DNA of 32,000 bases from Phycisphaera mikurensis NBRC 102666. GTDB lineage: Bacteria; Planctomycetota; Phycisphaerae; Phycisphaerales; Phycisphaeraceae. Below, in pieces: positions 6,250 to 29,016 of this stretch (its first letter is position 1; every line of letters starts with the position of its first letter). A program made the translations under genes and the position numbers. Location: assembly GCF_000284115.1 (NCBI RefSeq), contig NC_017080.1, forward strand, positions 1,590,001 through 1,622,000, in the 5' to 3' direction. A model generated the notes under the pieces. That model was not told where the DNA came from, did not search any database, and worked only from the letters and a program-made list of their open reading frames with translations.

Positions 6250-6990
6250 CGGGCAGCCCGACGCTCGCTCCAGGTCCTTCGCGACAAGCAGACAGAGCGG
6301 CGTCGCCGCTCAGCCTGGCCGCGCTAGCTGCGTGGCGACGCCACGCTGTCCGAGCCGCGGTCCGGCTCCTTCGCGCACAAGGCAGACAGAGCGGCGTCGC
6401 CGCTCAGCTCTCGGAGCCAGCCTGGCCGCGTTAGCTGCCTGGCGACGCCACGCTGTCCGCGTCGCCGATCCAGCTTCTTCGCGCACAAGCAGACAGAGCG
6501 GCGTCGCCGCTCAGCTCTCCCCGCCAGCCTGGCCGCGCTAGCTGCGTGGCGACGCCACGCTGTCCGAGCCCCGATCCAGCTCCCTCGCGCACAAGCAGAC
6601 AGAGCGGCATCGCCGCTCAGCTCTCGCCGCCAGCTTGGCCGCGGTCGCTGCGTGGCGACGCCACGCTGTCCGGGCCCCGATCCAGCTCCCTCGCGCACAA
6701 GCAGACAGAGCGGCATCGCCGCTCAGCTCTCGGAGCCAGCTTGGCCGCGCTAGCTGCGTGGCGACGCCACGCTGTCCGGGCCCCGATCCAGCTCCCTCGC
6801 GCACAAGCAGACAGAGCGGCATCGCCGCTCAGCTCTCCCCGCCACCCTGGCCGCGCTAGCTGCGTGGCGACGCCACGCTGTCCGAGCCGCCGATCCAGCT
6901 CCTTCGCGCACAAGCCAGACAGAGCGGCGTCGCCGCTCCGCTCTCGATGCCACCCTGGCCGCGATAGCTGCGTCGCGACTCGCTCGCGCC
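6250..6990. repeat. Non-coding tandem array, 106-107-bp unit x ~7, two palindromes per unit
   Basis: The landmark CTAGCTGCGTGGCGACGCCACGCTGTCC recurs at 6324, 6431, 6538, 6644, 6750 and 6856 (periods 107, 107, 106, 106, 106). A degenerate 7th start is at 6964 and a half-unit lies upstream (~6262-6323). Each unit holds GCGTGGCG-A-CGCCACGC (centres 6338, 6445, 6552, 6658, 6764, 6870) and GAGCGGC-NTC-GCCGCTC (centres 6303, 6397, 6504, 6610, 6716, 6822, 6930). The period is not divisible by 3. The ORF-track peptides here are frame-shifted Arg/Ala/Pro-rich versions of each other. Confidence 0.9.
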
Positions 6991-7049
6991 CTGCGTTTGG
7001 GGCTCGTTTCCACCAGCCCGGCCGCGGCGCGCGGAGAGGATCCGCGACC

Positions 7050-7647: not shown

Positions 7648-9681
7648 GTGAGCGCCACCTCCGAGCCCGTCACCCCGCCCGACCGAACGGCTTGCGATCA
7701 GGAGGCCGTGCCGCCGTCGGCTCCGGCGGCTCTGCTCGCCCCGCTGAAGCGGGCCTTCGGGCATGGCGGGTTCCGGCCGATGCAGCAGCGGATCGTCGAG
7801 GACGCCGTCGCCGGGCGGGACGTGCTGGTCATCCTGCCCACCGGCGGCGGCAAGAGCCTGTGCTATCAGCTGCCGGCCGTGGCCGAAGCGGAGGCCTGGG
7901 AGCAGCGGCGGGAGGGCCCGCGGCCGATGACGGTGGTGGTGTCCCCGCTGATCGCCCTCATGCAGAACCAGGTGGAGGCGCTCCGCGCCAACGGCGTCAA
8001 GGCAGGCTACCTCAACTCGTCCATGGACTTCGAGGAGGCCCGCCGCGTGCAGCACGAGGCCGAAACCGGCGGGCTGGACCTGGTCTACCTCGCTCCCGAG
8101 CGGATGATGAGCGAGCACGGCCGCGCGTGGCTGTCGCGGCTGCACGTCACCCGCTTCGCCATCGACGAGGCGCACTGCATCAGCGCGTGGGGGCACGACT
8201 TCCGCCCCGAGTACCGCATGCTCGGCGAGCTGCGGACCGGCTTCGGCGACCGCTTCCGGGGCGTGCCGATGATGGCGCTCACCGCGACCGCCACGCCCCG
8301 CGTCGCCGACGACGTGGTGGCGCAGCTGGGCCTCGGCGGCGACGCGAAGCCCGGCGAGGCCGGCGCGGTCGCGGTCCACCGCGGCGGGTTCGAGCGGCCC
8401 AACCTCTTCTACGAGGTGCGCCCCAAGCGGAAGGTGGTCGAGCAGATCGCCGCGATGCTCGAGGCCGACGACACCGCCGAGGGCATCGTCTACTGCGGCA
8501 GCCGCAAGAAGTGCGAGGAGATCGCCGAGCAGCTGCAGGCCGCCGGCCTGCCGGCGCTCCCGTACCACGCCGGGCTCGACGCGGAGACCCGCGCGGAGAA
8601 CCAGCACGGCTTCATCTACGGCGACTGCCGGCTCGTCGCCGCGACGATCGCTTTCGGCATGGGGGTGGACAAGCCGGACGTCCGCTTCGTGGTGCACGCC
8701 GACCTGCCGCAGAACCTCGAGGGCTACTACCAGGAAACCGGCCGCGCCGGCCGCGACGGCCTGCCCGGCAAGTGCGTGCTCTTCTACTCCGGCGGCGACC
8801 GGGCCCGCGTGGAGTTCTTCATTAACAAGAAGGAGGACCCCCAGGAGCGTGAGCACGCCCAGGAGCAGCTCGAGAAGATGATCAAGTACTGCCACACGAC
8901 GGGGTGCCGCACGGCCTTCGTCCTGCGGCACTTCGGCGACGAGCTGGCCCGGGTCGCGCCCGCGACCGGTGCCCACGCCGGCGGCGAGGCCGGCGTGGAG
9001 CGACCGCCGGGCCGGTGCGGCCACTGCGACAACTGCGTGAACCCGCCGAAGACCAGGGACGTGACCCAGGACGCGCGGAAGCTGCTCTCGGCCATCGCCC
9101 GGACCGGCCAGCGTTACGGCCTTTCCTACGTCTTCGACGTGCTGCGGGGATCGCGGGCGGCCAAGGTGCTCGAACGCGAGCACGACGGCCTCTCGGTGCA
9201 CGGGATCGGCAAAGACCAGCCTGTCGGCCACTGGCGGGCGCTGGCCGAGCACCTGGTGCAGGAGGGCCACCTCGCCTTCACCCACGACGGCTTCCGGGTC
9301 GCGCTGCTGACGGCGACGAGCAAGGACGTCATGCGGGGCGAGGTCCCGGTGGAGCTTGCGGTGAGTCGCGCCGTCGACCCCCGCGCGGGCGGGCCCGAAA
9401 GCGAGCGGATGGCGCAGGGCAAGCGGCGCCGCGCCGCCGCCGCGCAAGCCGAGCTCTCCCCCGACGCGGCGGACCTCTTCGAGAAGCTGCGGGCGCTGCG
9501 GGCCGAGCTCGCCGAGGAGCAGGGCGTGCCGCCCTACATCGTCTTCGGCGACGCGACGCTGCTGGAGATGGCGACGCGTCGGCCGCAGAGCGACCACGAG
9601 CTGCTGGCGATCTCAGGCGTCGGGCAGACGAAGCTGCAGCGCTACGGGGACCCATTCCGCCAGGCGATCCGGGAGGCTTGA
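7648..9681 (+). CDS. recQ: ATP-dependent DNA helicase RecQ
   Basis: 677 aa with a GTG start. Motif 0/I FGHGGFRPMQQRIV...LPTGGGKSLCYQLPA, DEAH box AIDEAHCISAWGHDFRPEY, a Cys cluster CHTTGC...CGHCDNC, and a C-terminal HRDC-like block LFEKLRALRAELAEEQGVPPYIVFGDATLLEMA. Confidence 0.92.
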   Translation: MSATSEPVTPPDRTACDQEAVPPSAPAALLAPLKRAFGHGGFRPMQQRIVEDAVAGRDVLVILPTGGGKSLCYQLPAVAEAEAWEQRREGPRPMTVVVSPLIALMQNQVEALRANGVKAGYLNSSMDFEEARRVQHEAETGGLDLVYLAPERMMSEHGRAWLSRLHVTRFAIDEAHCISAWGHDFRPEYRMLGELRTGFGDRFRGVPMMALTATATPRVADDVVAQLGLGGDAKPGEAGAVAVHRGGFERPNLFYEVRPKRKVVEQIAAMLEADDTAEGIVYCGSRKKCEEIAEQLQAAGLPALPYHAGLDAETRAENQHGFIYGDCRLVAATIAFGMGVDKPDVRFVVHADLPQNLEGYYQETGRAGRDGLPGKCVLFYSGGDRARVEFFINKKEDPQEREHAQEQLEKMIKYCHTTGCRTAFVLRHFGDELARVAPATGAHAGGEAGVERPPGRCGHCDNCVNPPKTRDVTQDARKLLSAIARTGQRYGLSYVFDVLRGSRAAKVLEREHDGLSVHGIGKDQPVGHWRALAEHLVQEGHLAFTHDGFRVALLTATSKDVMRGEVPVELAVSRAVDPRAGGPESERMAQGKRRRAAAAQAELSPDAADLFEKLRALRAELAEEQGVPPYIVFGDATLLEMATRRPQSDHELLAISGVGQTKLQRYGDPFRQAIREA

Positions 9682-9685
9682 CCGG

Positions 9686-9750
9686 CCGCGGACCCCGCGG
9701 ACCCCGCGGACCGTCGGCGTTTCGACACGGTTTCGATCACGGTCCGCGGG
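9686..9750. repeat. BP46 bipartite palindrome, perfect intergenic copy with triplicated left arm (possible recQ terminator hairpin)
   Basis: CCGCGGACC occurs three times in tandem (9686-9712). CCGCGGACCG (9704-9713), a 26-nt spacer, then CGGTCCGCGG (9740-9749). Complementarity extends to 12 bp (9703-9714 / 9739-9750). The copy lies between the recQ stop (9681) and the apgM start (9861). Confidence 0.85.
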
Positions 9751-13482: not shown

Positions 13483-14647
13483 GCGCGGCTTCCTCGAGCA
13501 CCTCGGCGTGGCGGAGGTCGGCCGCGGCGGCGGAGAAGGCGGCCGCACGCCGGACCGCCGCGGCGGCGAGGGCCGCCCGCGCGGCCGGATCGGCAAGCAG
13601 GGCCGCGAGGGACGCCGCGAGGGCGGCGGGGTCTTCCGGTGCGACGATCCGGCCGGCCGGCGGCTCCCCCAGCGCGTCGGGCATCCCGCCGACGCGGGTC
13701 ACCACCGGCGGGAGGCCGGCGGCCATCGCCTCGAGCAGCGCCAGCGGGAGGCCTTCGCTGCGGGAGGGCATCACCGCCACCGAGGACGCGTGCAGCAGCG
13801 CGGCGGTGGCGGCGGGATCGAGGCGGCCCGCGAAGCGGACGGCGTCGCCGAGGCCGAGCTCCGCCGCGAGCGACCGCAGGGCCGGCGCCTCGGGGCCGTC
13901 GCCCACCAGCGTGAGGCGGGCGGCGGGCACGGACGCCCGGAGGCGGGCGAGCGCCCGAAGCAGCACGTCGTGGCCCTTGACCCGCTCCAGACGCCCGACG
14001 CAGGCCAGGGCGGCCGGCGCCGCCGCCGCGTCGTCGGGCCTCCGCCAGAAGGCCAAGTCGACGCCGTTGGGGATCACCTCGACCGGCGCCCGGGGAAACG
14101 CCGGGCGGTGTCCGCCCGCCCGCAGCGTCTCCGCCCGCTCGGCGAGCCCGGCGGAGACGGCGATGATCCGGTCGGCCCGGCGGAGCAGCGCCCGGAGGCG
14201 GGCCGCGTCGGCGGGCAGCGGCTGCAGCAGGTCGCTGCCGTGGCAGGTCAGCACCAGCGCCGCGCGGCGCCGGGAGGAGGCGAACCAGCGGGTGCCGCCC
14301 CGCGGGAAGTGCACGTCGACCACCCGGGGCCGGAACCCGCGCAGCGTCGAGCGGAGGCGGCGGAGCGGGTCGGCCGCGTGAAGCAGGCCGCGGGGCGTGG
14401 GCCGCGGGCGGCCCAGCGGGAGCCGCCGATCCTCGAGGCGCGGGAGCCGCAGCGTGAGAACCTCGCCGGGCGAGGGCCAGCGGCGCGGTCGGGGCTCCGG
14501 GGCGGCCGGGTCGTCGATCGGCCAGGCGCGGACCACCGCGTGCCCGCGAGCGGCGAGGAAGGCGGCCGTCCGGCGGTAGACCGCCTGCACGCCCCCGGCT
14601 TCGGTGGGGACGACGGGCGTGTAGAGCAGGACGCGGAGCGGGGTCAC
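13451..14647 (-). CDS. family 4 (GT-B) glycosyltransferase
   Basis: 398 aa from the GTG at 14647 (VTPLRVLLYTPVVPTEAGGVQ...). The C-terminal half carries the GT4 signature FAGRLD...VAVMPSRSEGLPLALLEAMAAGLPPVVTRVGGMPD. The start overlaps the upstream stop as GTGA. Confidence 0.85.
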   Translation of the reverse strand: MTPLRVLLYTPVVPTEAGGVQAVYRRTAAFLAARGHAVVRAWPIDDPAAPEPRPRRWPSPGEVLTLRLPRLEDRRLPLGRPRPTPRGLLHAADPLRRLRSTLRGFRPRVVDVHFPRGGTRWFASSRRRAALVLTCHGSDLLQPLPADAARLRALLRRADRIIAVSAGLAERAETLRAGGHRPAFPRAPVEVIPNGVDLAFWRRPDDAAAAPAALACVGRLERVKGHDVLLRALARLRASVPAARLTLVGDGPEAPALRSLAAELGLGDAVRFAGRLDPAATAALLHASSVAVMPSRSEGLPLALLEAMAAGLPPVVTRVGGMPDALGEPPAGRIVAPEDPAALAASLAALLADPAARAALAAAAVRRAAAFSAAAADLRHAEVLEEAALSRPGRSPAR

Positions 14648-16638
14648 TCCGCCGGCCTTCCCGGCGCCGCCGGCGCCGCGTTGCGGCTTCGGCCCCGGGC
14701 CCAGCGCAGCAGCCGCAGCGCGGCGAGCGAGTGCGGCCGCAGCGCCAGCGCCCGGCGGGCGAGCGCGGCGGCGGCGGCGGGATCGGGCGGGTGCTCGCTC
14801 CCGGGCGCGCGGGCGAGGTGGCGGCGGGCGGTCTCGAGCAGGTAGGCGGCGGCCACGGCGCGGCCGGCCCGCCGCATCGCGGGGCCGTGGATCGCGTACA
14901 GCTGCTCCCGGGCGCGGAGGTTCCGCTCCAGCGCGCGGGAGCGGCGGGGGGTGGCGGCGGCGTCGTCCCGGTAGCGGGCGGTCACCCGCGGGATGACCGC
15001 GATGCGGTGCTGCTTCGCCAGGCGGATGCAGAACTCCCAGTCCTCGATCGCTTCGAGGGTTTCGTCGAAGAAGCCCGCGGTCGCGACCGCCTCGCGCCGC
15101 ATCAGCCCGTTGACGGTGAAGCCGAAGGCGCCGTTCTCCAGGAACAAGGCCGGGAGCGCGGCCGCGCCGGCTGCGGGCCGGTGCGTCGCCGTCCGCTTCC
15201 CATCGAGGCGCTGGATGCCCGAGCACAGCGCCGCCGTCGCCGCGGGCTCGGCGTCGAGCGCCCGCAGCCGGGGGCGGAGCGTGCCCGGCAGCCACGCGTC
15301 GTCGGAGTCCAGGAAGGCGACGACGCGGCCGCGGGCCTCGCGGAGGCCGCGGTTGCGGGCCGCGGCGACGCCGCCGTTCTCCCGCTGGCGGAGCAGGCGG
15401 AGCCGCGGGTCGTCGACGGCCTCCACGGCCTCGGGCGTGCCGTCGGTGGAGGCGTCGTCGACGACGAGCAGCTCCAGCGTGACGTCCGTCTGCGCGAGCA
15501 CGCTGCGGATCGCCCGCACGACGTCGGCGGGGCGGTTGAAGACGGGGATGATCGCCGAGACCTCGGGGAGGCGGAGCTCTTCGGGCGTCACCGCGGGGGC
15601 GGGGGCCGGGGTGGGGGCGGGGGCCGCGCCGCGGACCGCGGCGGGAATCGGCCTCGGCGGCCGGCAGTCCGCGGCGGAGGGCGGCGGACCGTTGGGATCG
15701 GCCGCCGGCGCCGGCGGCGACGCCGGGAAGAGCCGCCGCTTCAGGCGGGCCGCGGCGGGCGCGCGGAAGCGGCGGACGAGGCGGGCGACCCGGTCGGCGC
15801 TCGCCGCGTCGCCCGCCGCCGCGGCATCGAGCCGCACGTTGTGGAGAGCCGTCAGCAGCGCCGCCCGGTGGATGCCGAGCCGGCCGCTCTCCTCGAGCCG
15901 GTGGCCGATCTTCTCGAAGACATGCAGCCGGCTCGCCAGACCCTCCGGCGTCGCGCGCCGCCCGCTGAGCGTGGTCGCCCCGCCGGCGGGCCGGCGGTAG
16001 TAGGCGAGCCCGCGCGTGGAGAACGCGACGCCGGCGTCGCCGGTGCGCAGGAGGTGCCGCATCGCGAGGTCGCCGTCGTCCATCACGCTGGCTTGGGGGT
16101 CCCAGCCGCCGGTGCGCAGGCACGCCTCCCGGTCCCAGAGCATCGCGCACGTCGGGTGGTACCAGCCGCGCAGCCAGGCCGAGAGCAGCGGCTCGCCGGC
16201 GTGGCGGGGCCGGCAGGAGGCCAGCGCGGTCCGCCACGCCCCGTCTCCGCGGTCGGGGTCGGTCTCCAGCCGGCGCCAGCGGCACAGCGCGAGGCCGGCG
16301 TCGGGCGCGGCGTCGAGCGCCTCGTTCGAGCCCGCGAGCGCCTCGGGGCCGAGCACGTCGTCCGCGTCGAGGAAGAGCAGCCGGTCGCTCCGGGCCGCCA
16401 GCAGGCCAAGGTTCCGCGCACGGCCGGCGTTGCCGGCGTCGGAGGCGAGGAAGCGAACGCGGAAGGGCGCTCCCGCCAGGGCCGCGGCGGCGGCCGCGAA
16501 GCCGCCGTCGGTGGAGCGGTCGTCGACGACGATCACCTCCCACGGCGGGGCGGTCTGAGCCCGCAGCGAGAGCAGCGTCTCGCCGATCGTGTCGGCGCCC
16601 TGGTGCAGCGGGATGACGGCGGACACGCGGGCCTTCAC
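14644..16638 (-). CDS. fused bifunctional glycosyltransferase (two GT2 domains joined by a Pro/Ala-rich linker)
   Basis: 664 aa from the GTG at 16638. Domain 1 is VSAVIPLHQG...VIVVDDRSTDGG...LFLDADDVL. The linker is PASPPAPAADPNGPPPSAADCRPPRPIPAAVRGAAPAPTPAPAPA. Domain 2 is VSAIIPVFNR...LLVVDDASTDGT...AFLDSDDAW. There are GTGA overlaps at both ends. Confidence 0.8.
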   Translation of the reverse strand: MKARVSAVIPLHQGADTIGETLLSLRAQTAPPWEVIVVDDRSTDGGFAAAAAALAGAPFRVRFLASDAGNAGRARNLGLLAARSDRLLFLDADDVLGPEALAGSNEALDAAPDAGLALCRWRRLETDPDRGDGAWRTALASCRPRHAGEPLLSAWLRGWYHPTCAMLWDREACLRTGGWDPQASVMDDGDLAMRHLLRTGDAGVAFSTRGLAYYRRPAGGATTLSGRRATPEGLASRLHVFEKIGHRLEESGRLGIHRAALLTALHNVRLDAAAAGDAASADRVARLVRRFRAPAAARLKRRLFPASPPAPAADPNGPPPSAADCRPPRPIPAAVRGAAPAPTPAPAPAVTPEELRLPEVSAIIPVFNRPADVVRAIRSVLAQTDVTLELLVVDDASTDGTPEAVEAVDDPRLRLLRQRENGGVAAARNRGLREARGRVVAFLDSDDAWLPGTLRPRLRALDAEPAATAALCSGIQRLDGKRTATHRPAAGAAALPALFLENGAFGFTVNGLMRREAVATAGFFDETLEAIEDWEFCIRLAKQHRIAVIPRVTARYRDDAAATPRRSRALERNLRAREQLYAIHGPAMRRAGRAVAAAYLLETARRHLARAPGSEHPPDPAAAAALARRALALRPHSLAALRLLRWARGRSRNAAPAAPGRPAE
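15629..15674. repeat. BP46 bipartite palindrome, near-perfect copy inside the GT2-GT2 linker
   Basis: CCGCGGACCG (15629-15638), a 26-nt spacer, then CAGTCCGCGG (15665-15674). 19 of 20 arm positions match the consensus. The flanking G...C at 15628/15675 also pairs. Confidence 0.75.
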
Positions 16639-17807
16639 GCGGGGGCCTCCTCCAGCGTGGCGAGCGCGGCGGCGAGCGCCCCGGGCTCGACCGCGAGGTC
16701 CTGCTCCACCGGCGGCCGATCGCCCACCGGGCGGGCCGGCACGAAGCGGTGCCGGTGGCCCAGCGCCGCCCCGAGCGCGTAAAAGTTGGGGTTCGGGAAG
16801 CCGGGGTCGGCGAGCTCGACGACCTCGAGGCCACGCGGGGCGAAGAGCATGTTCGTGAGCCCGGCTCCGTGCGGGCCGGCGAGCACGCCGGTCTCCCGCA
16901 TCAGCGCCGCCTGCGCCGGGAGGTCCAATTCCTCGAAGACGACCCGCTCGAAGCCGTGGTCGTCGAGCACCCGGTGCAGCGCCGCGACGCCGAGCAGGCG
17001 GCGCCGGGTCGCCCGCTCGCGGCTCACCCACACGCGTCGCGTGGGCGCCGGCGCGTCGGCCAGCGCAAGCGCCCGGGGGATGAGGCCGACCAGCTCGGGG
17101 GCGAAGCGGTCGGTCGACAGCGCCGTCAGGCGGCCGACGCGCAGCGGCCGGTCCTCGTCGAAGCGGAGGAAGGCCGACTCCGGGAGCCCGAGCAGCCGCA
17201 GGCTCGCCTCGTGGGCCGGCGGCATCCGCGCCGGCAGCAGCACGTTCTTCAACCGGCCGAGCCCGCGGAGCAGCAGCAGCTTGGGCAGGTGCGCCGCGAG
17301 CCAGTGGCTGTGGTTGTGCCAGACCCGCTCCAGGAACCAGACCGCCTCGGGCACCTCGCGCGGCGCGGGGAGGCCGTTGCCCATCAGCAGCCGCTCGTGC
17401 CGCGGACGGAAGCGGACTTCCCGCATCCGAAGCTTCGATCCGCGGCCGGCCACGATCGCGGGGAAGAAGTCGTCGTTCTGCTCGGGGTCCCGGTACCAGA
17501 GGATCTCGGCGGGGCCGAGCTCGGCGACCTGCGTCGCCTCCGCGGCGCGGGCGGGCACGTCGGCCATCGCGTAGCCCCACCAGCCGGCGTCCGCCGGCAG
17601 CTCCGAGGCGGAGCCGACCCCGCGGGGCAGCGGGTTCGCGTGCACCCGGGGCGGGTGCACCTCCTCGAGGCGGGCGCCGGGGAGGGCCGCCGCGGCCTCC
17701 GCGAGCGAGCGGTCGCGGAGCCCGCGCCACCCGACGGCGCGGGCGGGGAGCCCGGCGCCCACGGCGCATCGCAGCCCGGCCCGGATCGCGCGGCGCAGCG
17801 GGCTCAC
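16635..17807 (-). CDS. GT61 / DUF563-like glycosyltransferase
   Basis: 390 aa from the GTG at 17807 (VSPLRRAIRAG...). Blocks HNHSHWLAAHLPKLLLL and FEELDLPAQAALMRETGVLAGPHGAGLTNMLFAP are typical of the DUF563/GT61 capsular-polysaccharide family. There are GTGA overlaps with both neighbours. Confidence 0.7.
   Translation of the reverse strand: MSPLRRAIRAGLRCAVGAGLPARAVGWRGLRDRSLAEAAAALPGARLEEVHPPRVHANPLPRGVGSASELPADAGWWGYAMADVPARAAEATQVAELGPAEILWYRDPEQNDDFFPAIVAGRGSKLRMREVRFRPRHERLLMGNGLPAPREVPEAVWFLERVWHNHSHWLAAHLPKLLLLRGLGRLKNVLLPARMPPAHEASLRLLGLPESAFLRFDEDRPLRVGRLTALSTDRFAPELVGLIPRALALADAPAPTRRVWVSRERATRRRLLGVAALHRVLDDHGFERVVFEELDLPAQAALMRETGVLAGPHGAGLTNMLFAPRGLEVVELADPGFPNPNFYALGAALGHRHRFVPARPVGDRPPVEQDLAVEPGALAAALATLEEAPA
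17400..17445. repeat. BP46 bipartite palindrome, degenerate copy inside the GT61-like gene
   Basis: CCGCGGACGG (17400-17409), a 26-nt spacer, then CGATCCGCGG (17436-17445). The arms match 9/10 and 9/10. The outer 7 bp are perfectly complementary. It is read in a different codon frame from the other coding copies. Confidence 0.55.
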
Positions 17808-19114
17808 GGGCCCGGCCTCAGCTCGTCCGTCCGCTGCGCGATGGCCGCGTGAACCGGCTCCCAGTCGCCGGCGTGCCGCGCACGCAGGCCGTCGAAGGCC
17901 GCGCGGATCCGCCCGCGGACCGCCGCGTCCGCGAGGTCCGCGGCGACCCGGTCCGCGGCTTCCGCCGCGGCGAAGGCGTCGGGCCGCAGGATCCGCTCCC
18001 CGAAGCCGGGCCCCAGCGAGGCGAGGAAGGCGTCGCACTTGGGGTCGTAGCTCACCAGGTGGCAGGGCACCCCCTGCGCCAGCGCGAAGATCACCGGGTG
18101 CAGCCGCAGGCTCACGACCGCGTCGAAGAGCCCGTAGAGGTGCTTGAGCGCCGCGGGATCCTCCACCGGCTCGTCGAGGACGACCGAGCCGGGCACCGCC
18201 ATCCGCGCCCGCACGCCCCGGGCGGTCGCCACGTCGTCGGGCTTGCCGGCGCTGGCTTCCCGCTGCCGGTCGGTGCCCAGGAAGAAGACGTCCGCGTGGT
18301 CACGCTGGACGCGGTCGAGCGTCGCGGCGAGCTCCGCGAAGACCTTCTCCCGGCGGGCGAGCGCGTCGGGGTAGTTCGCCTGGTAGTCGCGAACGCAGAC
18401 GCCGACCCGCGGCCGCTGGCCCGCCGCGATGCGGGCGGCGAGCGGCGCGGCGGCGGGGTCTTCACGCGGCCGGAGGAAGACCGCGGCGTCGGTCGACTCC
18501 ACCACCTGCGCGCGGACGCCCAGGCGCCGCAGCGCCGGCCCCGAGGCGTCGTCGCGCACGAGGATCCCGGTGTGCAGGTCCAGCGTGGAGCGCAGCAGCG
18601 GTCGGAGCAGGACCCCCCGCGGGCCCGCGAGGTCGAAGGGACCGCAGCCGACGCCGAGCTGGAAGGCCGGCACGCGGTAAAAGCGGGCGGCGGAGAGGAG
18701 CAGCCGGTTCTGCAGCACCATCCGCGGCTTCAACCAGCGGTCGTTCCAGGTCGGCCCGCCCTGGAAGACGAGCCCCGCGGCCCCCTCGAAGACGCCGCGG
18801 ACGCGGGCAAACGCCTCCGCGTCCAGCACCGCGCGCCCGCCGTCGCGGGCGAGCGCGCGGGCGAGCCGCAGCGTGCGCGGGTAGGTCTTTCTGCCGCCCA
18901 CCGCGGGCACCGCCCAGACGAGCCGCTCGTGCACCGCGTCGCCGGGGCCCGCCAGCTCCGGCAGCGCCCGGAAGACGCCGGGCCGATCGACGTAGGCGTG
19001 CACCGGCAGGTCGCTCCGCCGCCGCAGGCCCTGCAGGATGGCCAGCCCGATGCCGGTGTCGCCGACGGTCGGCGAGATCCCCGAGAACAGGATGCGCGGC
19101 GTCGGCGTCTTCAT
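17804..19114 (-). CDS. polysaccharide pyruvyl transferase (CsaB/WcaK family)
   Basis: 436 aa from the ATG at 19114 (MKTPTPRILFSGISPTVGDTGIGLAILQGL). The C-terminal block LYGLFDAVVSLRLHPVIFALAQGVPCHLVSYDPKCDAF is typical of PS_pyruv_trans proteins. The start shares one base with the wzt stop (TGATG). Confidence 0.72.
   Translation of the reverse strand: MKTPTPRILFSGISPTVGDTGIGLAILQGLRRRSDLPVHAYVDRPGVFRALPELAGPGDAVHERLVWAVPAVGGRKTYPRTLRLARALARDGGRAVLDAEAFARVRGVFEGAAGLVFQGGPTWNDRWLKPRMVLQNRLLLSAARFYRVPAFQLGVGCGPFDLAGPRGVLLRPLLRSTLDLHTGILVRDDASGPALRRLGVRAQVVESTDAAVFLRPREDPAAAPLAARIAAGQRPRVGVCVRDYQANYPDALARREKVFAELAATLDRVQRDHADVFFLGTDRQREASAGKPDDVATARGVRARMAVPGSVVLDEPVEDPAALKHLYGLFDAVVSLRLHPVIFALAQGVPCHLVSYDPKCDAFLASLGPGFGERILRPDAFAAAEAADRVAADLADAAVRGRIRAAFDGLRARHAGDWEPVHAAIAQRTDELRPGP
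17913..17958. repeat. BP46 bipartite palindrome, perfect copy inside the pyruvyl-transferase gene
   Basis: CCGCGGACCG (17913-17922), a 26-nt spacer, then CGGTCCGCGG (17949-17958). An extra right-arm-like AGGTCCGCGG sits in the spacer at 17934-17943. The copy encodes AADRVAADLADAAVRG. Confidence 0.85.
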
Positions 19115-20403
19115 CACGCCGGACCGTTGGGCACCGCCCACGCGTGCCGCGGGGCGATCGGGCACTCCAGCTGCGGCGTGGCGAGGGCCCGGCCGGCCAT
19201 CAGCCCCTGCTCGATGGTCAATTCCGCGGCCTGCTGGATCGCGTCGGCGAGGCCGTCGCGGTCGTGCAGCGTCGCGTTGAGGTGGTAGCCGCCGGGGGTC
19301 AGCGGCAGCTCCGGCACCTCGCAGAGGAACGCCGGCTCGTCCGTCGTCGTGTCGGTCGCCGCGGCGGCTTTGCTGGCGAAGCGGCACACCGGCCGGTTGT
19401 AGCCGTCGTACACCGCGAGGATGCACGAGAGCCCGCGGGTCACGCCGGAGAGGCCGACGCGGATCGTCGCGGGCTCGCCGTAGAGCAGGTAGCCCGGGGC
19501 GTCGGCGTTGTCACCTGACCAGGCCCGCAGCGAGGTGACCCGTGCCCGCTGGTGCCCCTCCCGGTCGGTCCGATCCGCGAGGTCGGCGGCCTCGACCGCG
19601 TTCTCCGCGAGGTACATCCGGACGGCCTCCGCGGGCGTGCCGCCGCCGATCAGCCGCCCCCGCTGCAGCACCACGGCCCGGTCGCACAGGCTCTGGATGC
19701 TGCCCATGTTGTGGCTGACGAAGAGGATCGTCCGCCCCTCGTCCGCGAAGGAGCGCATCTTGGCGACGCACTTCTTCTGGAACGCGGCGTCGCCCACGGC
19801 GAGAACCTCGTCGACGACGAGGATCTCCGGCTCGAGGTTGGAGGCCACCGCGAAAGCGAGCCGCACGTACATGCCGCTGGAGTAGCGCTTCACCGGGGTG
19901 TCGATGAAGCGGCCGATCTCCGAGAACGCCACGATCTCGTCGAACTTGTCGGCCACCTCGCGCCGCGACATCCCCAGCACCGCCCCGTTGAGGAAGACGT
20001 TCTCGCGGCCGGTGAGCTCGGGGTGGAAGCCGGTGCCCACCTCCAGCAGGCTGCCCATCCGGCCGTGGATGAAGGCTTCGCCCGCGGTGGGGTCGGTGAT
20101 GCGGGAGAGGATCTTCAGCAGCGTGGACTTGCCGGCCCCGTTGTGGCCGATCAGGCCGAGCACCTCGCCCCGCTGGACGTCGAAGCCGACGTCTCTGAGG
20201 GCCCAGAGGTCGCGCTCAGAGGATTGCGCCTCGTCCCCGCCGCCCGCGTCGCCGGTGGCGGCCGGGGTGCGGCCGCGGACGCGGTTACGCAGGCGGGCCG
20301 CGGCGGCGGCGACGGTGTCGCGCAGGTCGCCCCTGCCCTGCGGGCCCGTGCCCAGGCGGTAGTGCTTGGAGAGCCCCCTCACTTCGATCGCGGCTTGGGT
20401 CAT
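19114..20403 (-). CDS. wzt: polysaccharide/O-antigen ABC exporter ATP-binding protein with C-terminal extension (Wzt-type)
   Basis: 429 aa from the ATG at 20403, preceded by GAGGA 5 nt upstream. Walker A GHNGAGKSTLLK, signature YSSGMYVRLAFA, Walker B ILVVDEVLAVGD. About 170 further residues (RVTSLRAWSGD...YHLNATLHD...) sit where the Wzt glycan-binding beta-sandwich domain would be. Confidence 0.88.
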   Translation of the reverse strand: MTQAAIEVRGLSKHYRLGTGPQGRGDLRDTVAAAAARLRNRVRGRTPAATGDAGGGDEAQSSERDLWALRDVGFDVQRGEVLGLIGHNGAGKSTLLKILSRITDPTAGEAFIHGRMGSLLEVGTGFHPELTGRENVFLNGAVLGMSRREVADKFDEIVAFSEIGRFIDTPVKRYSSGMYVRLAFAVASNLEPEILVVDEVLAVGDAAFQKKCVAKMRSFADEGRTILFVSHNMGSIQSLCDRAVVLQRGRLIGGGTPAEAVRMYLAENAVEAADLADRTDREGHQRARVTSLRAWSGDNADAPGYLLYGEPATIRVGLSGVTRGLSCILAVYDGYNRPVCRFASKAAAATDTTTDEPAFLCEVPELPLTPGGYHLNATLHDRDGLADAIQQAAELTIEQGLMAGRALATPQLECPIAPRHAWAVPNGPA

Positions 20404-21287: not shown

Positions 21288-21322
21288 GCTCGGGCGGGGC
21301 GGCGGCGGGGTGGTCGCCGGTT

Positions 21323-21368
21323 CCGCGGACCGTGGGGCGTCGATGCTCCTGCGCCTCGCGGTCCGCGG
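21323..21368. repeat. BP46 bipartite palindrome, perfect intergenic copy between nnrD and wzm
   Basis: CCGCGGACCG (21323-21332), a 26-nt spacer, then CGGTCCGCGG (21359-21368). The spacer ends can extend the stem by about 8 pairs if G-U wobbles are allowed on the plus-strand RNA. Confidence 0.85.
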
Positions 21369-21381
21369 CGCGGGCGGGAAA

Positions 21382-26173: not shown

Positions 26174-26221
26174 GCCGCGGACCGCGGCCCGATCCCGCCG
26201 AAACGCCCGACGGTCCGCGGC
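26174..26221. repeat. BP46 bipartite palindrome, perfect intergenic copy downstream of the HU gene
   Basis: GCCGCGGACCG (26174-26184), a 26-nt spacer, then CGGTCCGCGGC (26211-26221). The arms are 11 bp. Read on the minus strand, the spacer begins TCGGGCGTTTCG, like the copy at 9704 (TCGGCGTTTCG). Confidence 0.85.
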
Positions 26222-26353: not shown

Positions 26354-26923
26354 TTAGTTCACGTACTCCTTGAGGTTCTTGAGTGCCCGGACCTTCACCG
26401 CCTTCGAAGCGGGCTTGGCCTTGATCATGATGTCCTCGCCCGTGAAGGGGTTGCGGCCGGGCCGCGCCTTGGTGGCGGGCTTCTTCACGACGGTCAGCTT
26501 CGCGAGGCTGAGGAGGTTGAACTCGCCGTGCTTCTTGAGCGAGGCGGCCATCTCGGCCTCAAGCTGGTCGAGCACGTCGACGACCTGCTTGCGGGAGAGG
26601 TCGCACTTGTCGGCGAGCGTGCGGTACAGCTCCGCCTTCGTCGGCGGCTTCGTCCCGGCGCTGCCCTTGCGGGGGCCCGACGAGGCGGTCTTGCTGGCCG
26701 CGGCCTTCTTCGCGGTCTTCTTGGCCGGCGACTTCTTCGCCGGGGCTTTCTTTGCGGGCGCCTTCTTCGCCGCGCTCTTCTTCGCCGGAGCCTTCTTCGC
26801 CGCGGCCTTCTTGGCGGGGGCCTTCTTGGCAGGCGCCTTCTTCGCGGGCGCCTTCTTGGCCGGGCTCTTCTTGGCGGGCGCCTTCTTGGCGGGGCTCTTC
26901 TTGGCGGGGGTCTTCTTGGCCAT
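26354..26923 (-). CDS. HU/IHF-family DNA-binding protein with N-terminal Lys/Ala/Pro-rich (histone H1-like) tail
   Basis: 189 aa. Residues 1-~95 are [19 protein letters not shown]... (about 14 AKKxP/A pentapeptides). The C-terminal ~93 aa is an HU fold ([12 protein letters not shown]...[18 protein letters not shown]...[11 protein letters not shown]). Confidence 0.9.
26705..26920. repeat. 15-bp tandem periodicity inside the HU-tail coding region
   Basis: GCCTTCTTGGCGGGC-type units repeat about 14 times on the plus strand. They encode the AKKxP pentapeptide repeats. Confidence 0.85.
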
Positions 26924-27297
26924 GGGGGTCTTCAGCTCACGGAGAGGGAAAAGGATTGGGGCACCCGGCGGGTCCCCGGTTGATCGTTGTATCGGTTGAA
27001 GAGAGCGCCAACGTCTTCGAATGAAGCGTTTTCGGCAGAAACGGTGCGCGAACCGTCGGGCTCGGGTGGGATTGGGAGGGCCACCCCGGCGATCCGAGGA
27101 TCGCGGACGCGGCGGGATTCGCAGGGGAAACGACAGATGATGTGCGGAGCGTCGTGTTTTCCGCGGCGAACGTCAAATCGCGGAGCGCCGCACCGGTCCG
27201 CTCCGCGTGCGGCCGGCGCGGCCAACGCGTTCGATGCGGTTGACGCGGGCGACGCTTTACCCTCCGCCCGCCCGCCGCCTCCGAAGCGAGACCCGCC

Positions 27298-29016
27298 ATG
27301 CCCCACGAGATCTCCCGCACCGCTTACGCCGAGATGTTCGGCCCCACCACCGGCGATCTCGTCCGCCTCGGGGACACGCGGCTGCTCGCCCGCGTCGAGG
27401 CCGACTTCACCGTCTACGGCGACGAGTGCAAGTTCGGCGGTGGGAAAGTCCTGCGCGAGGGCATGGGGCAACGCGCCGGCGGCGATCCGGCGGACGCGCT
27501 GGATTACGTCATCACCAACGCGCTGGTCATCGACTGGACGGGCATCTACAAGGCCGACGTCGGGCTCAAAGGAGGCCGCATCGCCGGGATCGGCAAGGCC
27601 GGCAACCCCGACGTGATGGCCGGCGTCGACGATCGCCTCGTCATGGGCGTCACCACCGAGGTCATCGCCGGCGAGGGCCACGTGCTCACCGCCGGCGGCC
27701 TCGACACGCACGTCCACTTCATCTGCCCGCAGATCGTCGACGAAGCGATCGCCTCGGGCGTGACGACGCTCATCGGCGGCGGCACCGGCCCGGCCACCGG
27801 CACCTGCGCGACGACCTGCACGCCGGGCGCCGCCCACGTGGAGATGATGCTCCGGGCGACCGACGGCCTGCCGATCAACTTCGGCTTCCTCGGCAAGGGG
27901 AACACCAGCGACCCCGAGGGCCTCGCCGAGGTCGCCGCCGCCGGCGCCCTGGGCTTCAAGCTCCACGAAGACTGGGGCACCACGCCCGCCGCGATCGACT
28001 GCTGCCTGGGCGTCGCCGAAGACCTCGACGTGCAGGTGTGCATCCACACCGACACGCTCAACGAGAGCGGCTTCGTGGAGGCGAGCGTCGCCGCTTTCAA
28101 GGGCCGCACGATCCACACCTACCACACCGAGGGCGCCGGCGGCGGCCACGCCCCGGACATCATCAAAGTGTGCGGCGAGCCCAACGTGATCCCCTCGTCG
28201 ACCAACCCGACGCGGCCGTACACGGTGAACACGATCGACGAGCACCTGGACATGCTCATGGTCTGCCACCACCTCGATGCGAACCTCCCCGAGGACGTCG
28301 CCTTCGCCGAGTCACGCATCCGCGGCGAAACCATCATGGCCGAGGACGTGCTCCACGACCTGGGCGCCTTCTCGATCATGGGCTCCGACGCCCAGGCGAT
28401 GGGCCGCGTGGGCGAGGTGGTGACCCGCACCTGGCAGACCGCCTCGAAGATGCGCGACCAGCGCGGCGTGCTCGGCGGAGACCGCGAGGGCCGCGGCGAC
28501 AACGAGCGGATCAAGCGGTACGTCGCGAAGTACACCATCAACCCGGCGATCGCCCACGGCATCGGCCACGTCGTCGGCAGCGTGGAGGTGGGAAAGCTCG
28601 CCGACCTGGTCCTGTGGAAGCCCGCCTTCTTCGGCGTGAAGCCCGAGCTGGTGATCAAGGGCGGCCACATCGCCAGCGCCCAGATGGGCGACCCCAACGC
28701 CAGCATCCCCACGCCGCAGCCGGTGCACACGCGCCCGATGTTCGCCGCGATGGGCAAAGCGGTCGCCGGCACCTCGCTGGCCTTCGTCAGCCAGTCGGCG
28801 GTCGACGCCGGCGCCGCGGACCGCTGCGGTTTGGCGAAGAAAACCGAGGCGGTCCGCGGCTGCCGCAGCATCGGCAAGGCGGACATGAAGCTCAACGACG
28901 CGCTCCCGGTGATCGAGGTCGACCCCGAGACCTACCGGGTCGTCGCCGACGGCGTCGAGCTGCGGTGCGAGCCCGCGGAGACGCTGCCGCTGGCCCAGAA
29001 GTACTTCCTCTTCTGA
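27298..29016 (+). CDS. ureC: urease alpha (catalytic) subunit
   Basis: 572 aa. [27 protein letters not shown]..., Ni ligands and catalytic residues in [20 protein letters not shown] (the carbamylated Lys), [33 protein letters not shown] and [10 protein letters not shown], and a C-terminal [10 protein letters not shown]. Confidence 0.95.
28813..28860. repeat. BP46 bipartite palindrome, perfect copy inside ureC
   Basis: GCCGCGGACCG (28813-28823), a 26-nt spacer, then CGGTCCGCGGC (28850-28860). It encodes [16 protein letters not shown] within the conserved C-terminal region of UreC. Confidence 0.85.

Follow-up and report, generated by a model that had tools for sequence, protein, structure and literature searches.

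A palindrome within the urease alpha subunit gene

We analysed a stretch of 32,000 nt from Phycisphaera mikurensis (hereafter the window; G+C 74%), in which a palindrome of a family termed BP46 lies inside ureC, the gene of the urease alpha subunit. The open reading frame (ORF) at 27298..29016 on the plus strand encodes 572 amino acids and is 100% identical to the urease alpha subunit of P. mikurensis. The gene is intact. A comparison with L027, which carries the closest UreC (87% identity, 69% G+C), yielded a nonsynonymous divergence (dN) of 0.096 and a synonymous divergence (dS) of 0.469, and the omega of about 0.2 indicates purifying selection.

The palindrome (GCCGCGGACCGCTGCGGTTTGGCGAAGAAAACCGAGGCGGTCCGCGGC) occupies 28813..28860 on the plus strand. 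Its 48 bases are in frame in ureC and make up codons 506-521. The left arm, GCCGCGGACCG (28813..28823), is formed by codons GCC GCG GAC CG-, and the right arm, CGGTCCGCGGC (28850..28860), by codons -CG GTC CGC GGC. The codons across the two arms (GCC GCG GAC CGC and GCG GTC CGC GGC) are preferred ones throughout. In the 26-base spacer between them (28824..28849), bases 28824-28832 pair with 28841-28849, which leaves a loop at 28833-28840. As the initial annotation of this DNA had described, the arms are 11 bases each and perfectly complementary, the spacer is 26 bases, and the 16 encoded residues sit between FVSQ and CRSIGKADM in UreC, in the frame given there. The full pattern (11-base arms and N26) occurred twice in the window, compared with 0.00 expected from 100 dinucleotide-preserving shuffles.

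Origin of the palindrome within ureC

The segment aligned gap-free to plant ureases (HMMER), and the ureases of Yersinia, Sporosarcina, Helicobacter and Klebsiella matched it in single stretches of equal length. For Klebsiella aerogenes, the initial annotation had stated the same number of residues, and correctly so: in chains such as 1ejw_C, residues 486-534 aligned with query residues 7-55 in one stretch (49/49). In the alignment of the 120 closest UreC proteins (MAFFT), the columns of the segment were contiguous, and 118 of the 120 proteins had no gap there. A 16-codon insertion relative to other UreC proteins was looked for and was not seen in these alignments. In addition, the spacer encodes the conserved G-L-x-K-x-x-E-x-V in register (family frequencies G 100%, L 95%, K 100% and V 97%). 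Given the lack of an insertion or deletion (indel) relative to other ureases and the conserved residues in register, the palindrome is not an insertion, and the earlier claim that it is no mobile element holds against both the solved ureases and the closest UreC proteins.

The relatives of P. mikurensis point to the sequence from which the palindrome arose. The right arm encodes AVRG, and in the alignment of 120 UreC proteins each of these four residues is the most frequent one in its column. The UreC of L085 is 82% identical and is encoded without the motif; its codons at this place are GTG GGC GAG CGC ... GCG GTG CGC GGC (VGER...AVRG). Since L085 ureC already fits 16 of the 22 arm bases, about six substitutions, of which several replaced an amino acid (V to A, G to A, E to D), would have completed an existing partial palindrome. 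The proposal that the ancestral codons themselves spell the arms was thus supported, and it becomes sharper with these closer relatives. In the DNA, the spacer can be seen to be homologous to ureC from relatives without the motif, and the interior is nearer to orthologous ureC than to other copies of the family; L028, for example, shares T.C GG. ... AAG ... ACC GAG ... GTC CG. with it. The interior also holds rare residues at conserved columns, namely C (95% Y), K (67% R) and T (89% I, V or L). These comparisons show that the ureC copy was built by point substitutions, synonymous and amino-acid-changing, on existing codons. They likewise show that the starting segment was already a partial palindrome, as it encoded (D/E)R ... 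(A/P)VR(G/N).

In both P. mikurensis (26987-29016) and L027 (1764-3745), ureC is found alone, with no ureAB, ureD, ureF or ureG adjoining. In L028, L084 and L085, the relatives with UreC identities of 81-83%, ureC is preceded by ureD, a fused ureAB and a small ORF. The Rfam model 5_ureB_sRNA (RF02514) matches ureC antisense at 27451-27743 on the minus strand (96.7 bits). This match most likely reflects the conservation of urease coding sequence and is no evidence of a small RNA there.

Anatomy of the BP46 family

The window was searched for two arms with a spacer of 15-40 bases and at most 2 mismatches per arm. Seven elements were found, starting at 9703, 15628, 17399, 17912, 21322, 26174 and 28813, and every spacer was exactly 26 bases. 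Two further copies lie in the following 7 kb of the P. mikurensis genome (L030). These 39 kb therefore hold eight good copies (0-1 core mismatches) and one doubtful copy (2 mismatches). The core mismatches of the nine copies are 0, 0, 0, 0, 0, 0, 0, 1 and 2, and the background, at any spacing, begins at 4 mismatches; the mismatch spectrum is bimodal, with no trail of decayed copies. The 46-base core occurs exactly five times in the window. Exact arms were always paired, with no lone arm among them.

The form of the family is CCGCGGACCG, exactly 26 free bases and CGGTCCGCGG. Weaker preferences adjoin the core, with Y-S-G just inside it and, in a profile of 106 flanks, a symmetric G-R-A-B outside it. 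At positions 14/35 and in the flanks, the sequence preferences go beyond what pairing requires. No GTAG or CGTC tag was present in the flank profile, and TTTT was found within 12 bases of the element in only 1 of the 106 flanks. The spacers are essentially unrelated between copies (0-0.6 bits in the interior columns), apart from a loose subfamily with ...YSG-SSG-TTTCGG... (GTTTCGG) just inside one arm, to which ureC is partly similar (GCGGTTTGG). No target-site duplications or flanking direct repeats were seen at the copies. No family among the Rfam covariance models matched any copy at E<=1, and no description of the repeat in Phycisphaera was found in the literature searched.

Two apparent regularities were considered and rejected. 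A regular chromosomal spacing (minimum gap 2.3 kb, p ~0.015) vanished when the copy at 17399 was counted, and gene lengths explain it anyway. A consistent orientation of the interior T-run with respect to the gene upstream was seen in five copies and contradicted by four.

Partial tandem left arms occur directly upstream of two copies. One series, GCCGCGGACCC-CGCGGACCC-CGCGGACCG, starts at 9685 (9685-9713) and runs into the copy at 9703; the other, ACCGCGGACC-GCCGCGGACCG, is at 19972-19992 in L030. Their position suggests slippage or extra half-sites. Elsewhere in the window, the non-coding interval 6284-7023 contains a 106-base unit repeated in tandem about seven times, with the inverted repeat GACAGAGCGGCGTCGCCGCTCAGC ... 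GCTGCGTGGCGACGCCACGCTGTC in every unit. This unit is unrelated to the BP46 arms.

Location of the copies

Three copies of the window are intergenic. The copy at 9703..9750 lies 22 bases past the stop codon of the gene ending at 9681, with the partial left arms at 9685-9702 between them. The copy at 21322..21369 lies 13 bases past the stop codon of a carbohydrate kinase gene and is kept at the orthologous site of L086. The copy at 26174..26221 has perfect arms and lies 133 bases past the stop codon of an HU gene. As for the copies in L030, one is 170 bases past the stop codon of an autotransporter gene and the other, at 19982, is between divergent genes.

The remaining copies are within genes. 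The copy at 17912..17959 (minus strand) is in a polysaccharide pyruvyl transferase gene and has a reading frame like that of ureC (AADRVAADLADAAVRG). No indel was found relative to 11 homologues (e.g. ALDRLHRMLGTPGLRA), and the gene is a second, independent case without insertion. The copy at 15628..15675 (minus strand; one core mismatch) also has the ureC-like frame (AADCRPPRPIPAAVRG) and encodes part of a linker between two GT2 domains. It is found at the same place in L086 and L087, and it aligned without a gap to homologues, in which the linker is variable. Thus, the three good in-gene copies (ureC, pyruvyl transferase and GT2) are all in the AAD(R)...AVRG frame. The doubtful copy at 17399..17446 (minus strand; spacer 26) is in a GT61 glycosyltransferase gene in another reading frame. 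Each of its arms has one uncompensated mismatch; the element is either a resemblance due to chance or a copy in decay.

Several of the P. mikurensis copies are 2-34 bases past stop codons. In L027 and contigs from marine metagenomes, many copies, in both orientations, are found within 1-25 bases of a stop codon, and none of the 30 classifiable copies in the marine contigs was within continuous coding sequence. The genes around the copies are housekeeping genes in mixed orientation. Most copies of the family are thus found shortly past stop codons.

Two of these genes have features of their own. In the product of the histone-like HU gene (26354..26923, minus strand), a Lys/Ala-rich repeat resembling histone H1 (AKKAPAKK...) is joined to a DNA-binding domain of the HU/IHF type (Pfam HC2 and Bac_DNA_binding). 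In the GT2-GT2 glycosyltransferase (14644-16638, minus strand), the copy is in a Pro/Ala-rich inter-domain linker. This linker is not the product of a recent gene fusion, because the two-domain architecture is widespread (homologues of 620-690 aa).

Conservation of copies between species

We compared copies at orthologous sites. Between P. mikurensis and L027, 45 of the 48 bases of the ureC palindrome are kept (dS of the gene ~0.47). Of the three changes, one affects position 12 (C-G to U.G), one the terminal pair and one the loop. Three differences per 48 bases, against a gene mean of 7.35, place the palindrome in the lowest 13% of ureC windows.

The carbohydrate kinase site and its counterpart in L086 share the core (20/20) and the spacing of 26, whereas just 13 of the 26 interior bases are identical, and the distance from the stop codon to the element differs by an 11-base indel. 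Across three species, all six arm codons of the GT2 copy (GCG GAC / GCG GTC CGC GGC) are the same, whereas the spacer and the flanking residues in this linker differ; the gene-wide background is 0.63-0.70 identical codons among identical residues. The pyruvyl transferase of L087 is a distant paralogue and is uninformative for conservation.

Since arms and spacing are kept at orthologous sites while the spacer drifts, the arms and the 26-base spacing are constrained at the nucleotide level, and the spacer sequence is not. Selection or biased conversion acting on the DNA or RNA motif, as had been argued in the initial annotation, is supported chiefly by these orthologous copies, with arms and spacing intact, and by the bimodal mismatch spectrum. 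The annotation had further regarded BP46 as a functional signal and not a parasite resembling a MITE (a miniature transposable element with inverted repeats). The part on MITEs stood, given that there is no insertion; the functional signal itself we infer.

Distribution of the family

The family was sought in 596 Gb of genome sequence from 185,579 species, a collection that does not include P. mikurensis. The 46-base core gave 26 matches, each of them single in its genome, which means that BP46 does not exist there as a family, and viral contigs contained no match to it. Among metagenomes, 53 stretches carry the core, and 33 of the 53 come from a few marine assemblies (ENA ORXU01, ORXM01 and ORXT01; JGI Ga0115029), where contigs of 1-2 kb have as many as two copies. 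These marine contigs were assigned provisionally, solely by their carrying the family and their mostly high G+C, and a comparison of their genes with Phycisphaera gave no informative overlap. Some marine contigs hold clustered pairs 130-530 bases apart (L047, 789-968; L052, 1428-1686; L067, 166-738).

Within 7 kb, L027 carries three copies, including one at the ureC codons that bear the palindrome in P. mikurensis. Of the contigs syntenic with the polysaccharide cluster of the window, L086 (74% G+C) has four good copies and L087 (75% G+C) has one. No copies were found in L028, L084 and L085 (UreC 81-83% identical; 60-67% G+C; 50 kb in total). The initial annotation had asked whether the arms occur in close relatives and not in distant ones; they are present in L027 and absent from these three. 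The family is restricted to the Phycisphaera lineage.

Pairing and folding

The complementarity of the ureC palindrome reaches beyond the arms described in the initial annotation: of the 20 mirrored positions, 18 are paired by Watson-Crick rules and one by G.T, around an 8-base loop. The predicted RNA energy of the hairpin is -38.7 kcal/mol, and the hairpin is part of the minimum free energy fold of its 108-nt context, with a z-score of -6.9. The stem GGTTT/AAACC uses the rare codons GGT (5% of Gly), TTG (1.6% of Leu) and AAA (6% of Lys). The TTG in the stem is the sole TTG in ureC, and L027 keeps GGT, TTG and AAA. When all 16 codons were resampled, at least 19 mirrored pairs were obtained in 0.02% of draws, a result owed mostly to the arms, by which the search itself had been defined. 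The ureC spacer is only moderately tuned for pairing. A stronger claim of interior codons tuned for pairing was downgraded, given that the resampling is driven by the arms and that ancestral-type peptides fold alike.

Across the family, the interiors folded with a mean z-score of -0.7 to -0.8 relative to interior shuffles, and pairing at positions 15-20 was slightly above that of slid controls. On the sense strands, G.U was not in excess of A.C (18 vs 16). The strand that folds better differs among copies; in the copy at 21322, the predicted energies are -39.6 kcal/mol antisense and -32.1 kcal/mol sense.

Discussion

We consider it probable that the palindrome in ureC truly belongs to a family specific to the Phycisphaera lineage, that it arose in place, and that its arms and spacing are a recognised signal. 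The arms would be the recognition sites, and the fixed spacer would set the geometry for a sequence-specific factor. This factor would most likely bind duplex or extruded DNA symmetrically, in the way gyrase, IHF or RAYT proteins do at repetitive extragenic palindromic (REP) elements, and it would usually act at the 3' ends of transcription units. New copies may arise at near-matching sequence and may then be completed and held by selection or a conversion-like drive. In coding regions, the good copies use only the frame Ala-Ala-Asp-Arg ... Ala-Val-Arg-Gly, with preferred codons.

Several points weigh against this explanation. The function of the family is inferred, and the census of P. mikurensis covers about 39 kb, i.e. 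the 32 kb of the window and the next 7 kb. Independent insertions at a hotspot might, in principle, explain why two species have identical sites. For the synonymous sites of the ureC palindrome, which the initial annotation had proposed to compare, the counts were as follows: between P. mikurensis and L027, synonymous changes were found in 3 of the 16 codons inside and 124 of the 465 codons outside, a difference that is not significant (Fisher p = 0.35) in a comparison of low power. The remaining points concern pairing beyond the arms. With the arms fixed, 7 of the 9 interior pairs in ureC are Watson-Crick, compared with 5.1 +/- 0.8 expected (p = 0.03; p ~0.007 for energy), and ancestral-type interior peptides matched this RNA energy in 13-36% of the codon draws, with fewer Watson-Crick pairs. 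At 12:37, the pairs of the family are U-A (17), C-G (16) and U.G (14), and the cells with both sides changed numbered 103, above all 500 shuffles (70 +/- 7). Given this covariation adjoining the arms, a hairpin of RNA or single-stranded DNA has to be taken seriously.

Such an RNA hairpin would end transcripts with its GC-rich stem or shield 3' ends from exonucleases, would be read by an RNA-binding protein, and in ureC would be an internal mRNA hairpin. We regard it as possible but rather unlikely. The location of most copies just past stop codons and the covariation of pairs at 12:37 and 13:36, outside the arms, speak for it and may keep an RNA role alive. The sole stem change in ureC relative to L027, C-G to U.G on the sense strand, also suits RNA, as does the dominance of the ureC hairpin in the local RNA fold (z = -6.9). 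However, an RNA stem does not account for the lack of a G.U excess over A.C on the sense strands or for the better antisense fold of the copy at 21322, and one copy (L030, 19982) lies between divergent genes. A T-run follows in only 1 of 106 flanks, and neither a fixed 26-base spacer nor an invariant stem is needed by a terminating or protecting hairpin. The strand symmetry, the occurrence in both orientations, the fixed spacer and the preferences unrelated to pairing favour duplex or extruded DNA read by a symmetric protein.

A self-sustaining drive with no function at each site, arising from biased uptake and recombination or from a bias of repair or conversion, seems unlikely to us. It would make the ureC copy a tolerated by-product, which fits the coincidence of this copy with the rare residues C, K and T at conserved columns. 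Copies were written into three unrelated genes where the segments were already near the motif, and the good in-gene copies share one frame of preferred codons, much as uptake sequences do (PMC2817400). Nevertheless, BP46 occurs only as pairs at exactly 26 and never as single arms, whereas uptake sequences are mostly single motifs; none of the 30 classifiable marine copies is in continuous coding sequence, and neither competence nor a system for conversion is known from this organism. The in-frame insertion of a small mobile element (of the MITE, REP or Rickettsia palindromic element type) into ureC is highly improbable. The 48 bases are a multiple of three and in-frame palindromic insertions in genes are documented (PMC3733652), but the alignments contradict this explanation, with no length difference from any urease, with G-L-x-K-x-x-E-x-V encoded in register by the interior, with mutually unrelated interiors among the copies, and with neither a target-site duplication nor a GTAG/CGTC tag. 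Hardly any weight is left for an origin by chance under codon usage of high G+C, or for an AADR...AVRG peptide selected at the protein level, even though all arm codons are preferred and the isolated matches in other high-GC genomes, where they fall in genes, mostly use the AADR...AVRG frame. This explanation is already contradicted by the shuffles (0.00 expected) and by the 26 matches in 596 Gb elsewhere compared with five in the 32 kb window. Moreover, most copies are intergenic and hence encode no peptide, and the arms are kept at an orthologous intergenic site.

Among known systems, BP46 would work most like REP elements. Gyrase, IHF and RAYT are among the proteins bound by REP elements. 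Like REP elements and the bacterial interspersed mosaic elements (BIME), BP46 is a short GC-rich palindrome with many copies, dense (about 1 per 4-5 kb) and mostly extragenic at 3' ends, occurring in both orientations and specific to a species or genus. BP46 differs from REP elements in its length (46-48 bases vs the usual 20-40) and in its build, two arms of 10-13 bases with a free spacer of fixed length instead of a short stem with a short loop. The REP superfamilies are tagged by GTAG or CGTC (PMC3733652), and BP46 lacks such an unpaired tag. Intragenic REP elements add 20-30 residues (PMC3733652), whereas the in-gene copies of BP46 are not insertions.

Inverted pairs of DNA uptake sequences are found downstream of genes. 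The uptake sequences of Pasteurellaceae (uptake signal sequences, USS) and Neisseria (DNA uptake sequences, DUS) resemble BP46 as motifs of about 10 bases that are substituted into coding sequence, in frames with preferred codons and at poorly conserved residues (PMC2817400). These are chiefly single motifs, with 35-65% of them inside ORFs (PMC2817400); BP46, in contrast, occurs only as pairs at exactly 26 and is mostly intergenic. HIP1 of cyanobacteria is over-represented both in genes and in the intervals between them; the conservation of its sites exceeds expectation and was interpreted as a sign of selection, and its function is possibly chromosomal (PMC5861425). The likeness to BP46 is that of a palindrome in and between genes that is conserved between genomes, but HIP1 is one 8-base palindrome present more than once per gene, and BP46 is a 46-base bipartite element present about once per 4-5 kb.

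Insertions of Rickettsia palindromic elements (RPE) are about 100-150 bases long. The RPE share with BP46 that a palindromic repeat is translated inside functional genes (PMC3733652). An RPE adds a peptide segment, whereas no residues are gained through the copies in ureC and the pyruvyl transferase gene. Membership in the MITE/RPE insertion class was rejected, as ureC and pyruvyl transferase have no indel, interiors are unshared and no direct repeats were seen. An intrinsic (Rho-independent) terminator was ruled out by the scarcity of TTTT in the flanks. An integron attC site was also rejected: the arm CCGCGGACCG lacks the GTT/AAC core (RYYYAAC / GTTRRRY), and the neighbours are housekeeping genes in mixed orientation.

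A wider claim is tentative, and we regard it as possible but less likely than not. BP46 might be an undescribed genome-wide bipartite signal with invariant half-sites of 10-13 bases exactly 26 apart, read by a dedicated Phycisphaera-lineage protein. The pressure to form and retain its sites would be strong enough to rewrite codons, including those of conserved residues, of an essential-type enzyme, and BP46 would be neither a mobile repeat nor a single-motif sequence of the uptake or HIP type.

Palindromes within bacterial genes are usually read as selfish insertions, and here the ureC copy was traced codon by codon to the gene's own sequence. This moves the family from a parasite towards a recognised signal or the target of a drive. 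The ureC copy would also serve as a test bed, since synonymous recoding of the arms separates effects of the nucleic-acid motif from those of the protein, and the fixed 26-base geometry gives a handle on the binding factor. The organisation of chromosomes and transcripts in Planctomycetes is poorly understood, and an abundant, lineage-specific signal may be an entry point to it.

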